Shown: positions 4,086 to 63,385 of the stretch, one piece after another
Layout: every line of letters starts with the position of its first letter
Numbering within the stretch: position 1 is the first letter of the stretch
DNA from: Congzhengia sp.
GTDB lineage: Bacteria > Bacillota > Clostridia > UBA1381 > UBA9506
Direction of reading: 5' to 3'
Assembly (NCBI GenBank): GCA_045576635.1
Contig: JAZNGT010000038.1
Coordinates: 1 to 64,000 of the forward strand
Length of the DNA: 64,000 nucleotides
Translations under genes and position numbers: made by a program
Notes under the pieces: generated by a model
What the model saw: the letters and a program-made list of their open reading frames with translations, nothing else
The model's database searches: none
What the model was told of the DNA's origin: nothing

Positions 4086-4736
4086 TTAGTTTTCGGTTTC
4101 TTCCGGTGTAGCGTCGATGATCATTTCAGGGTCGGTTGCAATGTTTGTAGCAACCGGCTTTAAACTCTGATATGCATTTGCGAACGTAGCGTTCATATAT
4201 GGCATAACCCAAATGAATGCAATACCAAACGTAATTCCACCCAAAAGAATCCAGCCGATAAACGATAAGTTCAAAACAAAGAGGTCCATTTTGTGACCGT
4301 CTGTCATTGCTTTTGACTCGTTAATACATTCAAGTGCGCTTTTTCCTTTGTTTTCAGCAAGGATATACATCGCCATTGAGTAAGAAACACTTTTGACAAT
4401 ACCCGGAATCACAAAAAGAAGTGACCATAAAAACGTAAAAAGGCCAACCAGGAAATTTACCTTAAATGCTGACCAGAAATCATCAAATCCGCAAAAGGCA
4501 TCTCCGGCAGCAGGATTTGTGTTTTTCGTTAAATTCAAATAAATACGAAATGTACTTAATGCAAATGCCGGTGTAACAATAATTGCAGCAGCCAACCCGC
4601 CAACAATCGGAACGAGTGATAATACAAAAGAAGCAAGTCCCGAAATTACCGCGATAATCAGAGATATCACAAAAAGCATACCTATTTTACCCCTGATTTG
4701 TTGTTTTGCTTTTGTTTTTAATTCTGCTCTGTTCAT
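4086..4736 (-). CDS. DUF975-family integral membrane protein
   Basis: About 216 aa with 5-6 TM segments. Architecture and length are typical of DUF975 (YciC-like) membrane proteins. The ATG at 4734-4736 is preceded by GGAGTG. Confidence 0.5.
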   Translation of the reverse strand: MNRAELKTKAKQQIRGKIGMLFVISLIIAVISGLASFVLSLVPIVGGLAAAIIVTPAFALSTFRIYLNLTKNTNPAAGDAFCGFDDFWSAFKVNFLVGLFTFLWSLLFVIPGIVKSVSYSMAMYILAENKGKSALECINESKAMTDGHKMDLFVLNLSFIGWILLGGITFGIAFIWVMPYMNATFANAYQSLKPVATNIATDPEMIIDATPEETEN

Positions 4737-4766
4737 ATACAAAACACTCCTTTTGTAGTATGTGGT

Positions 4767-4925
4767 TTAGGCGTCGGATTTTGGTTTTTTGTTGGACATA
4801 TGCGTTTTCAAAATAATATTTATATATTGAGATAACGAACGGTCGTCTTTTTCCGCAAGGATTCTTAAACTTTCAAGAATATCGCTGTCAATTGTTATGC
4901 TTATTTTTTCTTTCAATGGTTTCAA
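4767..4925 (-). CDS. ribbon-helix-helix (CopG/Arc-like) small DNA-binding protein, TTG start
   Basis: 52-aa ORF found by hand; it is not in the ORF track. Sequence: LKPLKEKISITIDSDILESLRILAEKDDRSLSQYINIILKTHMSNKKPKSDA. It has a beta-strand followed by two helices with the typical RHH spacing. GAGGTGA RBS. It lies 30 nt upstream of, and is co-oriented with, the DUF975 gene. Confidence 0.45.
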   Translation of the reverse strand: MKPLKEKISITIDSDILESLRILAEKDDRSLSQYINIILKTHMSNKKPKSDA

Positions 4926-35583: not shown

Positions 35584-35780
35584 GGGATGCAAAAAGACAG
35601 AAAAGAAAGGTTGATTATTCTGTCCTTTTGTTTCGGCAAAAGGACGAAAACCATTTTGCGCTTTCGGCGAAAGCGCATACGCCCAACGCACCTGTTTGGT
35701 ATTACTATTTTGTCCTATTAGGTTCATGTGCGATGGAAAGTTTATGGTACTTTTGGCATGACAAAAGTATGAATCAGCAC

Positions 35781-35813
35781 AAAAAAACCCGAGCATTTTG
35801 CTCGGGTTTTTTG
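35781..35813. terminator. bidirectional intrinsic terminator between his operon (+) and KH gene (-)
   Basis: AAAAAAA-CCCGAGC-ATTTT-GCTCGGG-TTTTTTG. Confidence 0.7.
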
Positions 35814-61646: not shown

Positions 61647-61793
61647 ATGTGGCTTAAATACAGAATTTGGTCGATTGTGTGCGGTGCATTTTGTCTGGGG
61701 ATTTTTGCAGGACTTTTGCTGCCTCCGATGTTTTTGGTTGTCATAGAGGGCGTTCTTTTGCTTTTTGTGGCGATTTGCAAACTGTGCGGTTAG
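61647..61793 (+). CDS. 48-aa hydrophobic small membrane protein (hypothetical)
   Basis: AAGGGAGGG RBS 7 nt upstream. Sequence MWLKYRIWSIVCGAFCLGIFAGLLLPPMFLVVIEGVLLLFVAICKLCG. Found by hand; it is below the ORF-track length cutoff. Confidence 0.35.
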   Translation: MWLKYRIWSIVCGAFCLGIFAGLLLPPMFLVVIEGVLLLFVAICKLCG

Positions 61794-61811: not shown

Positions 61812-61886
61812 ATGAAGGTTGTAGTACTTACATTACCAAAGGCAATTACGGGGATTTTAAAAAGCATTTTTAAAATGAAAGACTAA
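61812..61886 (+). CDS. 24-aa small peptide ORF (hypothetical)
   Basis: GGAGCAAG RBS. Sequence MKVVVLTLPKAITGILKSIFKMKD. Immediately followed by an intrinsic terminator. Confidence 0.2.
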   Translation: MKVVVLTLPKAITGILKSIFKMKD

Positions 61887-61887
61887 A

Positions 61888-61921
61888 AAGAAGGAGTCAC
61901 TTTTAAGTGACTCTTTTTTTA
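61888..61921 (+). terminator. rho-independent terminator (GAGTCACTT-TTAA-AAGTGACTC)
   Basis: Perfect 9-bp stem followed by TTTTTTT. The identical hairpin recurs at 63358-63377. Confidence 0.65.
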
Positions 61922-62040
61922 TGCTGTCTTTTTTTCATTTTCGCACAAAAAAACGCTTATAGTCGGTATTGTGACTATAAGCCATCCGGAGTGGAAAAAC
62001 GAATGGAACAAGCGCTTTTTGCTGCGCGGAAACGTTTTTT

Positions 62041-62064
62041 GTACTTTTGGCATGACAAAAGTAC
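62041..62064. repeat. short hairpin repeat R1 (GTACTTTTG-GCATGA-CAAAAGTAC)
   Basis: Perfect 9-bp stem. Further copies lie at 62471-62494, 62643-62666, 63311-63334 and 35746-35768. Confidence 0.7.
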
Positions 62065-62093
62065 AAAGAATTTACTTGAAAACGCTTTTTCTA

Positions 62094-62135
62094 TGCCCTT
62101 TTGTTTCGACAAAGACACGAAAACCATTTCGCGCA
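62094..62135. repeat. short hairpin repeat R2 (GCCCTTTTGTTTCGrCAAArGrC...GAAAACCATTTCGCGC)
   Basis: Further copies at 62553-62596, 62697-62737 (perfect stem GCCCTTTTG/CAAAAGGGC) and 35621-35680. Confidence 0.6.
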
Positions 62136-62153
62136 ATCAGGAAAGAAAAGAAT

Positions 62154-62494
62154 TTTTACTTGTTACTACGCGGAAACAAATGGGACACCGTATTTCACAC
62201 AAAACTGACGCGTTGGGTGAAAATGCGCTCAAAAACGCGATGGTTTATCCCGAAAGATGCCGTATGTAAGGCAAAACCGAGGTGTCAAAAAGTTCCCCTA
62301 GCCGACCCTCGGTTTTAGATGGACCTGAGCGCATATATATGCGCGAATGTTCTCGTGCCTTACATAAGGCATTACCTCGTGTGTTTAAAAAGTGCAAAAT
62401 ACTTACGGTTTTTGACAAGAAAACAAAGCGGCATAAATCGAGCGCTTTTTGCCGCGCAGATACGCTTTTGGTACTTTTGGCACGACAAAAGTAC
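62154..62494. repeat. ~345-bp structured repeat element, copy 1
   Basis: About 97% identical to 62991-63334. Internal nested palindromes include a 17-bp outer stem ATGCCGTATGTAAGGCA/TGCCTTACATAAGGCAT, AAAACCGAGG/CCTCGGTTTT, and GCGCATATATATGCGC. Confidence 0.7.
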
Positions 62495-62610
62495 GGAGAA
62501 AAGATATATACAAAATAAAAAAGCGCTGCTTTAAACGTGACTCTCGTTTTATGCCCTTTTGTTTCGACAAAGACACGAAAACCATTTCGCGCAAACAGTA
62601 AAGAAAAGAA

Positions 62611-62666
62611 TTTTTACTTGTTACCACGCGGATACGCTTTTGGTACTTTTGGCATGACAAAAGTAC
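62611..62666. repeat. short 'empty-site' version of the 345-bp element (5' and 3' ends joined without the ~286-bp core)
   Basis: TTTTTACTTGTTACCACGCGGA | TACGCTTTTGGTACTTTTGGCATGACAAAAGTAC. Confidence 0.55.
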
Positions 62667-62990
62667 AAAGAATTTACTTGAAAACGCTTTTTCTATGCCC
62701 TTTTGTTTCGGCAAAAGGGCGAAAACCATTTCGCGCCACAGCAAACAAATGATTGATAGCCACATATCGCACAAAGTGGTGGTATATAAAAAGCGAAACG
62801 GCGTGTTTTCTGCGAGCCCCCTGCGGTTTGCGGCACGGGCAGATGCAAAAGACTCACTTTTGCAACTGCCCTAAAATCGGGGGTCAGCAAAGGAAACCGA
62901 TACCACCCGATTTTACACGCACACCGCAGGCGGAATAATCAATCAATTCATTTGCTAAGGCGCATCGGAGCGCAATAATTAAAGATAAGA

Positions 62991-63334
62991 GTTTTTACTT
63001 GTTACCACGCGGAAACAAACGGGACACCGTATTTCACACAAAACTGACGCGTTGGGTGAAAATGCGCTCAAAAACGCGATGGTTTATCCCGAAAGATGCC
63101 GTATGTAAGGCAAAACCGAGGCGTCAAAAAGTTCCCCTAGCCGACCCTCGGTTTTAGATGGACCTGAGCACATATATATGTGCGAATGTTCTCGTGCCTT
63201 GCATACGGCATTACCACGTGTGTTTAAAAAGTGCAAAATACTTACGGTTTTTGACAAGAAAACAAAGCGGCATAAATCGAGCGCTTTTTGCTGCGCAGAA
63301 ACGCTTTTGGTACTTTTGGCATGACAAAAGTACG
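62991..63334. repeat. ~345-bp structured repeat element, copy 2
   Basis: Direct repeat of copy 1, with compensatory changes in the stems (GCACATATATATGTGC here versus GCGCATATATATGCGC in copy 1). Confidence 0.7.
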
Positions 63335-63354
63335 GAGAAAAACACGAAAAAGAA

Positions 63355-63385
63355 AAAGAGTCACTTTTAAGTGACTCTTTTCGTT
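63355..63385. terminator. second copy of the GAGTCACTT-TTAA-AAGTGACTC hairpin
   Basis: Identical stem-loop to 61894-61913, followed by TTTTCGTTTTG. It could terminate either convergent unit. Confidence 0.45.

Follow-up and report, generated by a model that had tools for sequence, protein, structure and literature searches.

REP/REPIN sequences (repetitive extragenic palindromes), which are mobilized by RAYT proteins, are gene-less, multicopy, hairpin-forming extragenic repeats that lie near gene 3' ends, undergo compensatory change and are species specific. [quoted passage not shown] Here, we focused on a 64-kb stretch of contig JAZNGT010000038.1 from Congzhengia sp. (assembly GCA_045576635.1, positions 1 to 64,000; referred to as the window), in which a terminator zone between the convergent genes spoIIE and glgP holds an array of repeat units. 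We propose, with a probability of roughly 45%, that this zone has become a nest of small, gene-less, hairpin-rich, MITE-like repeats that are non-autonomous and depend on their folded structure. Like MITEs, the units typically stay below 500 bp and encode no protein, carry inverted repeats at their termini, and are AT rich, intergenic and stably folded. The initial annotation of this locus, noting that no transposase is present, had already suggested a candidate non-autonomous mobile or structured element, and the mobile-element reading is a reasonable one. No transposase is encoded nearby.

The units share two end modules, referred to here as S and T. S is the hairpin CCCTTTTG-TTTCGG-CAAAAGGG followed by CGAAAACCATTTCGCGC; between the ends lie a head, TTTTTACTTGTTACCACGCGGA, and a core of 277 bp, and the tail together with T reads GCTTTTGG-TACTTTTG-GCAYGA-CAAAAGTAC. 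A covariance model of T (R1), run over the whole window, found exactly five T modules (at 62026, 62456, 62628, 63295 and 35732), each with an E value below 1e-9. R1 also matched the S modules weakly on the opposite strand; in reverse complement, S takes the form of a T-like module. At the two ends of each unit stand imperfect terminal inverted repeats of ∼58 bp, S on the left and T on the right, and each of these repeats holds a 9- to 12-bp hairpin of the form CTTTTG-N6-CAAAAG with a matching T or A tract alongside. These terminal repeats had been overlooked in the initial annotation. When left ends were aligned with reverse-complemented right ends, the 58-bp repeat of unit 3 (62688-62745/63287-63342) scored 48, compared with a maximum of 31 in 300 shuffles, and units 1 and 2 as well as a solitary unit elsewhere in the window have comparable repeats. 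The inverted repeats measure 58 to 62 bp, are ∼70 to 77% identical and lie above all shuffles. The solitary unit is 168 bp long, unit 2 ∼170 bp and unit 1 ∼415 bp, while unit 3 reaches 655 bp owing only to a nested insertion of 231 bp. A six-frame query retrieved no protein homologues, and the terminator scan called the flanking terminators (61894, 63354 and 35782) but not the S and T hairpins.

As judged from its sequence, the interval 61926-63348 holds four [S .. T + terminator] units in tandem that arose by local segmental duplication, because in the alignment of the units every T of the array precedes a homologue of one and the same intrinsic terminator, after which S comes again. Unequal recombination amplified one unit and the terminator downstream of it in place, giving four units, of which unit 1 contains core copy 1, and unit 3 contains core copy 2 plus the extra 231-bp insertion. 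Subsequent changes left unit 0 truncated and unit 2 without a core. The two long copies had earlier been regarded as separate insertions, but the homologous terminator and S that follow each of them identify both as units of a local duplication. The intact terminator hairpin GAGTCACTTTTAAGTGACTC is found only at 61894 and 63358, that is, at both borders of the array. From left to right, the array is composed of the following features.

61885-61925, + strand: intrinsic terminator A at the left array border, hairpin 61894-61913 (GAGTCACTTTTAAGTGACTC) plus T-run (terminator scan).
61926-62066, + strand: unit 0, truncated, in which a degenerate stretch resembling S precedes the final 14 nt of the core, a 9-mer and T.
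62027-62035, + strand: 9-mer CGCGGAAAC of unit 0, whose T hairpin module spans 62026-62066 (R1, 55.5 bits).
62087-62150, + strand: left terminal inverted repeat of unit 1 (S, hairpin degenerate; end alignment).
62169-62177, + strand: left 9-bp direct repeat of core copy 1, CGCGGAAAC.
62178-62454, + strand: core copy 1, 277 bp, holding the outer, AAAACCGAGG and GCGCATATATATGCGC stems.
62455-62463, + strand: right 9-bp direct repeat of core copy 1, CGCAGATAC.
62445-62502, + strand: right terminal inverted repeat of unit 1, T stem 62471-62479/62486-62494 (R1, 53 bits).
62510-62548, + strand: degenerate terminator copy, duplicated along with unit 1 (array alignment).
62520-62690, + strand: unit 2 (the "empty site" of the initial annotation), nearly just two inverted repeats.
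62627-62635, + strand: junction 9-mer CGCGGATAC of unit 2, whose T module spans 62628-62668 (R1).
62688-62745, + strand: left terminal inverted repeat of unit 3, with an intact S hairpin at 62697-62720.
62733-62963: nested insertion x2, 231 bp, with ∼26-bp terminal inverted repeats (GCGCC...).
63008-63016, + strand: left 9-bp direct repeat of core copy 2, CGCGGAAAC.
63017-63293, + strand: core copy 2, 277 bp.
63294-63302, + strand: right 9-bp direct repeat of core copy 2, CGCAGAAAC.
63287-63342, + strand: right terminal inverted repeat of unit 3, T module 63295-63335 (R1, 55 bits).
63349-63385: bidirectional terminator C at the right array border, hairpin 63358-63377 identical to that of terminator A.

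The array as a whole is bracketed by a 46-nt inverted repeat (61891-61936/63335-63380, 78% complementary) that includes both identical terminator hairpins, and the two terminators flanking an element at the spoIIE locus of a relative (L045, see below) likewise resemble each other; the inverted repeats of S..T elements may extend to include the terminators. Just inside the left border, at 61955-61982, there is a terminator-like hairpin with a T-run on the minus strand, suggesting that minus-strand transcription over the array ends, or formerly ended, at this point.

The nested insertion x2 had previously gone unnoticed. Its ends are ∼26-bp inverted repeats (GCGCCACAGCAAACAAATGATTGAT and its complement) with a score of 30 versus a shuffle maximum of 27, and the whole insertion folds as a long hairpin (z = -6.3). 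It is present only in unit 3, the same point being empty in units 1 and 2, and no other copy was seen in the window; it is possibly flanked by a 4-bp GCGC duplication. x2 is a true filled-versus-empty contrast inside the array and shows that unit 3 acquired a second, nested inverted-repeat element.

The S..T architecture is not limited to the array, as the following unit, overlooked in the initial annotation, lies ∼26 kb away from it.

35612-35779, + strand: solitary fifth S..T unit with a different interior (R1, 47 bits; end alignment).

This unit is located between the hisIE stop codon and a terminator at 35782-35812, again between a convergent gene pair, in this case hisIE and the khpA-rpsP-ffh operon. 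To place the array in a broader context, we compared the spoIIE loci of seven relatives. Judged by SpoIIE, the organism of the window is represented by a single NCBI assembly, the SpoIIE of the next relative being 54% identical. One relative, L045 (GCA_045580665.1; SpoIIE 52% identical to that of the window), contains a 349-bp S..T element at the orthologous site, with 62-bp inverted repeats (score, 59) and an interior unrelated to those of the window units. It fills precisely the space between two convergent terminators, the tips of its inverted repeats being the T-tracts of these terminators, follows conserved open reading frames (ORFs) of 48 and 24 amino acids, and keeps S and T while the surrounding DNA is unalignable. 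No T module was found in the spoIIE loci of the other six relatives (∼120 kb in total). Members of the L045 clade are 60 to 67% identical to each other, with the window as outgroup, so this patchy presence implies that the element was lost repeatedly or was gained independently at sites of the same kind. A further element, of ∼600 bp, was found on an Angelakisella contig (L002), with inverted repeats of at least 105 bp that include T (score, 58).

The two conserved ORFs are also present in the window, directly downstream of spoIIE, where 61647-61793 encodes a 48-amino-acid hydrophobic protein and 61813-61887 a 24-amino-acid peptide (MKVVVLTLPKAITGILKSIFKMKD). In L044-L046, whose SpoIIE proteins are only ∼52 to 54% identical, the sequences and positions of both are conserved, and L049 and L050 additionally have a called gene for the 48-amino-acid protein. 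Both ORFs probably encode genuine small proteins with a link to spoIIE.

We then compared the two long copies within the array. They align over 370 gap-free columns (62131-62500 versus 62970-63339), and the stretch 62154-62500 versus 62993-63339 is 96.8% identical, with 11 substitutions and no gaps, in agreement with the two direct copies of ∼97% identity first noticed. The nested palindromes described at that time were recovered by an inverted-repeat search in both copies: the 17-bp outer stem ATGCCGTATGTAAGGCA/TGCCTTACATAAGGCAT, the inner stem AAAACCGAGG/CCTCGGTTTT and the 16-nt palindrome, which reads GCGCATATATATGCGC at 62329-62344 in copy 1 and GCACATATATATGTGC at 63168-63183 in copy 2. 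The reported paired change that keeps the palindrome stem is present as G>A at 62331 and C>T at 62342. The outer stem, described as mismatched in copy 1 and wobbling in copy 2, differs at two positions, with a G.A mismatch in copy 1 versus G-C in copy 2 at 62367, and U-A in copy 1 becoming U.G in copy 2 at 62362. That the repeats are noncoding and strongly structured is likewise supported by folding against shuffles (z = -5.1 on the + strand and -4.5 on the - strand), along with the lack of protein homologues.

The initial annotation also held that the differences between the copies respect the stems, and this is the case on the + strand. None of the 11 differences breaks any of the 109 pairs in the RNAalifold consensus, which was predicted from these same two sequences only. 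Three consensus pairs changed one-sidedly to or from a wobble, and one changed on both sides (compensatory); all three wobble changes are compatible with pairing on the + strand only. By a rough estimate, ∼1 in 100 random sets of 11 substitutions would leave every pair intact. A paired change within a DNA palindrome can, however, come from templated (quasipalindrome) mutation without any selection. Because the structure was derived from the same two sequences and templated mutation can pair changes, the pair-sparing differences are suggestive only of a maintained structure.

To gain an idea of how widespread T is, a point that had been missed earlier, we scanned genomes and metagenomes with exact patterns, so that all counts given are lower bounds. 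T was found in at least five genome loci (two in one unclassified metagenome-assembled genome and the others in Angelakisella, Nitrospiraceae and candidate division Kazan), in 17 viral contigs and in at least 21 metagenome loci. All 22 of the genome and viral matches have an upstream CTTTTG[GC] tract, even though the pattern did not demand it. The end hairpin of the window elements is ∼80 to 90% similar over 35 to 45 nt to the module of very distant lineages, which stands at the end of otherwise unrelated structured intergenic elements, next to unrelated housekeeping genes such as metK, uvrB, ftsZ, nrdR, rny and a penicillin-binding protein gene. No transposase, TnpB, reverse transcriptase or integrase was seen near T at any locus examined, no transposase adjoins the module in the 50 fetched loci, and the S pattern had no matches in viral contigs or fetched loci. 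Loci of the candidate phyla radiation (CPR) type share a common ∼230-nt element in which many pairs covary and after which come T and another pair of stems resembling a pseudoknot, while loci of the Nitrospiraceae type have a different, rod-like body of ∼245 nt that ends in T. R1 additionally recovered divergent T copies missed by the exact pattern, with uniform orientation within each contig. The densest case is a CPR-like contig of 600 kb (Ga0076296_11), which carries at least five T-ended ∼230-nt elements, in one orientation, in the 20 kb fetched. They lie between unrelated housekeeping genes encoded on the opposite strand, are not in Rfam, and have their T copies at the following positions.

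L028, 902-942 and 5305-5345: T copies of Ga0076296_11.
L042, 343-383 and 6491-6531: T copies of Ga0076296_11.
L036, 806-846: T copy of Ga0076296_11.

Another contig, L038, has three T copies in the same orientation within 4.8 kb. These belong to T-bearing repeats of ∼400 nt (151-555, 2363-2754 and 4406-4810), spaced by ∼2.1 kb, between which lie small AT-rich ORFs that include, by eye, an antitoxin/PIN-toxin-like pair. The layout is reminiscent of a cassette array, and no integron-type sites were recognized in it. The 17 viral contigs, from IMG/VR (L006-L022, e.g., L013 7715-7755), share the T variant CCGCCTTTTGC-TACTTTTG-GCGGGA-CAAAAGTAG, whose loop can pair with the 5' flank; between contigs, this pairing shows a compensatory switch from CCGCC/GGCGG to GCGCC/GGCGC. 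In L013, T occupies the gap between a hicAB-like pair (by eye) and a gene without an assigned product, in antisense orientation to both, with a terminator-like hairpin after it.

Comparison of the T copies shows that their stem is conserved by covariation. The pair that closes the base of the T stem covaries in 23/23 sequences, which comprise all four Watson-Crick types and one G-U, and divergent copies contain compensatory changes within the stem (UAC/GUA to UCC/GGA and UUUUG/CAAAA to UUUCC/GGAAA). Further, the length of the upstream U-run equals that of the A-run in the stem, being 4/4 in the canonical T and 3/3, 3/3, 3/3 and 5/5 in L028 902, L042 6491, L038 2657 and L035 1245, respectively. 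This hints at a three-strand or alternative-pairing interaction, or at an interaction in trans. A cis triple helix was set aside, as in most copies the U-tract abuts a 5-bp lower stem and cannot reach the A-tract. A pseudoknot between the T loop and the upstream sequence is supported in some lineages only (49% of cells paired overall). The apparent invariance of a 20-nt T core among the pattern matches is an artifact of exact-pattern scanning, since R1 found variant cores.

We next asked whether T had been described before. The Rfam scan called for in the initial annotation was run, and no Rfam 15 family (including group I and II introns, ribozymes, HEARO, ROOL, OLE and raiA) matched the repeat region of the window at E values up to 10; nor did any match 45 related T-bearing loci from genomes, metagenomes and viral contigs, at gathering or permissive thresholds. 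BLAST searches found no counterpart of a whole unit among annotated plasmids and phages, nor of the viral T region among phages, and a literature search for these sequence strings and related element types found nothing specific. The T hairpin motif is apparently undescribed. It is conceivable, although short of probable, that T defines an undescribed cross-phylum class of structured elements, characterized by an upstream U-tract followed by a CUUUUG-N6-CAAAAG stem with a covarying base, and distributed over CPR (many copies per 0.6-Mb genome), Nitrospiraceae, Clostridia and phage-like contigs. Such a class would be recognized by a widely distributed machinery, amounting to either a new hairpin-DNA mobilization system or a new noncoding RNA domain.

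Given this conserved structure, we weighed whether the units could instead be genes for structured small RNAs or RNAs derived from 3' untranslated regions, with T as the 3' domain before the terminator, S and T pairing or folding to protect the ends, and the array as a set of paralogues. We consider this unlikely, although it is the chief competing interpretation and accounts for several of the observations. An intrinsic terminator follows T by 10 to 20 nt in each unit, and a terminator-like hairpin follows T in viral contigs too. Copy differences are compatible with pairing on the + strand only, S and T have persisted in the orthologously placed element of L045 amid unalignable DNA, and covariation is extensive over the ∼230 nt of the CPR family. 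In addition, the stretch immediately upstream of copy 2 contains, at 62952-62979, the promoter-like sequence TTGCTA-16-AATAAT. However, promoter-like sites are no commoner in the array region than in shuffles, and none precedes the solitary unit or the L045 element, the latter lying beyond both convergent terminators. In the CPR family, G-U pairs (∼28) are roughly as frequent as A-C combinations (24) once three columns with G-U in every or almost every sequence are set aside, and this lack of a G-U excess fits a structure at the DNA level. Orientation relative to the neighboring genes is inconsistent as well, being on the same strand in the window and on the opposite strand in CPR and viral loci. 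Finally, inverted-repeat symmetry, nested insertions, unrelated interiors and patchy presence are atypical of RNA genes. Because symmetry, nesting and patchiness are typical of selfish DNA, and because of the G-U counts, the promoter frequencies, the position of the L045 element and the inconsistent orientation, we favor MITE-like elements over RNA genes.

If the units are MITE-like, S..T elements would reach new sites via a trans-acting enzyme that recognizes the folded T hairpin on one strand, the substrate being single-stranded DNA or RNA. Such dependence on folding could explain the maintained base pairing, and the elements would be expected to persist best beside terminators, where they are harmless. 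Several observations weigh against this interpretation. Two of them would fit an RNA as well: folding of the solitary unit is favored by 11.6 kcal/mol on the + strand relative to the - strand, and the three one-sided stem transitions are wobble compatible on the + strand only. The CPR fold of ∼230 nt is kept between copies that are only ∼60 to 70% identical, which is unusual for junk repeats. No target-site duplication is definable for any S..T element, and the tips merge into terminator T-tracts; the solitary unit and the L045 and L002 elements lack flanking direct repeats, and hence the flanking target duplication expected of a MITE when young, with 9-bp repeats present only around the inner core. 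No autonomous partner was found, whether transposase, TnpB, reverse transcriptase or integrase, near any locus examined. The inverted repeats (58 to 105 bp) are longer than usual for MITEs, and dispersal within this genome rests on two loci (five T modules) in 64 kb.

In the version of mobility put forward in the initial annotation, a core of ∼286 bp is itself the mobile unit, inserted twice, with 62611-62666 as the unoccupied target. We regard this as improbable. The core, present in two units, does interrupt a right inverted repeat that is contiguous in unit 2. Direct repeats of 9 bp lie on either side of it, with CGCGGAAAC to the left of both copies and CGCAGATAC (copy 1, 7/9 identical) or CGCAGAAAC (copy 2, 8/9 identical) on the right, and truncated unit 0 has CGCGGAAAC as its right-hand 9-mer, identical to the left-hand one. 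Nevertheless, the homologous flanks on both sides, which include the downstream terminator, imply one insertion at most, followed by duplication. End alignment detected no terminal inverted repeats on the core itself, pattern scans of viral and metagenome contigs gave 0 matches to it, and a six-frame concatenated query found no called ORFs resembling it, leaving the idea of a multicopy insertion family unsupported. The core represents either an insertion nested in the unit or an interior specific to this lineage.

The short copy is likewise better explained within the array. The direct joining of head to tail at 62611-62666 is real, but unit 2 is a derivative and not an unoccupied target. Its 9-mer, CGCGGATAC, has G at position 4, as in the left repeat, and T at position 7, which occurs only in the right repeat of copy 1, making it a recombinant of the repeats of copy 1. 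Units 1 and 2 also share a derived, broken S hairpin (GACAAAGACACG instead of GGCAAAAGGGCG), and the right half of unit 2 resembles unit 0. Because the core is present in both units 1 and 3, and unit 1 is the one with which unit 2 groups, it would be simplest to assume that unit 2 lost the core, by recombination or slippage between the 9-bp repeats of copy 1; an origin by unequal crossing-over within the array is equally possible. Correcting the empty-site interpretation matters, as it would have overstated the evidence for transposition.

It is more doubtful still that the array is nonfunctional spacer, in which a terminator-containing stretch was duplicated by slippage and the palindromes are by-products, with neither mobility nor selected structure. 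The tandem layout with co-duplicated terminators and a core unique to this locus in the collections searched would agree with this, but the solitary unit, the L045 and L002 elements and the cross-phylum T place the ends in a wider family, and 0/11 differences break a predicted pair. Least probable, to the point that we give it little credence, is an assembly artifact in which near-identical repeats of this metagenome-assembled genome were misjoined and the array inflated or scrambled: short reads make it difficult to assemble repeats of 97% identity that lie within 840 bp, and the organism is in one NCBI assembly only (SpoIIE cluster of one member), but the units differ by specific substitutions, indels and a nested insertion, looking evolved and not chimeric, and the independent assemblies L045 and L002 show the same kind of element.

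The array illustrates that a terminator zone between convergent genes can become a nursery of nested, self-folding repeats. The elements appear densely repeated in some streamlined CPR genomes, and no Rfam family covers T. If T does define a class of its own, it would provide a handle to a new mobilization system or a new RNA domain and would serve well as a marker when "gene-free" gaps of metagenome-assembled genomes are annotated.

Among known systems, terminator-like repeats at gene ends resemble the units in that the array co-duplicated a real terminator and that the tips of the L045 element are the T-tracts of two convergent terminators. Unlike these (SPRITE-like) repeats, the S and T hairpins lack a T-run, and the units are far larger and bounded by inverted repeats. 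The palindrome-associated transposable elements (PATEs) of IS200/IS605 and the TnpB guide RNAs have in common with the units subterminal hairpins at both ends, no obvious target duplication, a non-autonomous nature and single-strand structure. They differ in that S and T are inverted and not direct, and no conserved 4- to 5-nt target motif was seen. Identity with IS605 or a TnpB guide RNA was rejected on account of the housekeeping neighbors, the inverted end modules and the lack of TnpA/TnpB near any locus examined. The boxes or contexts expected of integron attC sites, dif/Xer sites, invertible promoters and the single-strand promoters of conjugative leading regions are missing by eye. REP/REPIN sequences are, like the units, gene-less extragenic repeats that form hairpins and preserve their fold; they consist of palindromes of 20 to 40 nt that have a conserved GTAG head and occur as inverted doublets. 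In contrast to them, the units show no GTAG-type head (by eye), no RAYT gene was seen in the DNA examined, the units are much larger and have variable cargo, and T is common to several phyla. The closest match in overall build is with type II MITEs (Correia/CREE of Neisseria, QMITE2 of Coxiella and bcr1 of the Bacillus cereus group), which are also small, gene-less, AT-rich and intergenic, and which share with the units terminal inverted repeats, conserved ends, variable interiors, stable folds and mutual nesting. Here, the differences are that the inverted repeats of the units measure 58 to 105 bp instead of 4 to 30 bp, each with its own hairpin, that neither a target-site duplication nor a parent insertion sequence was found for them, and that their end module is conserved across phyla, unlike ordinary MITE ends. 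The units belong to no named family, and it is MITEs that they resemble.

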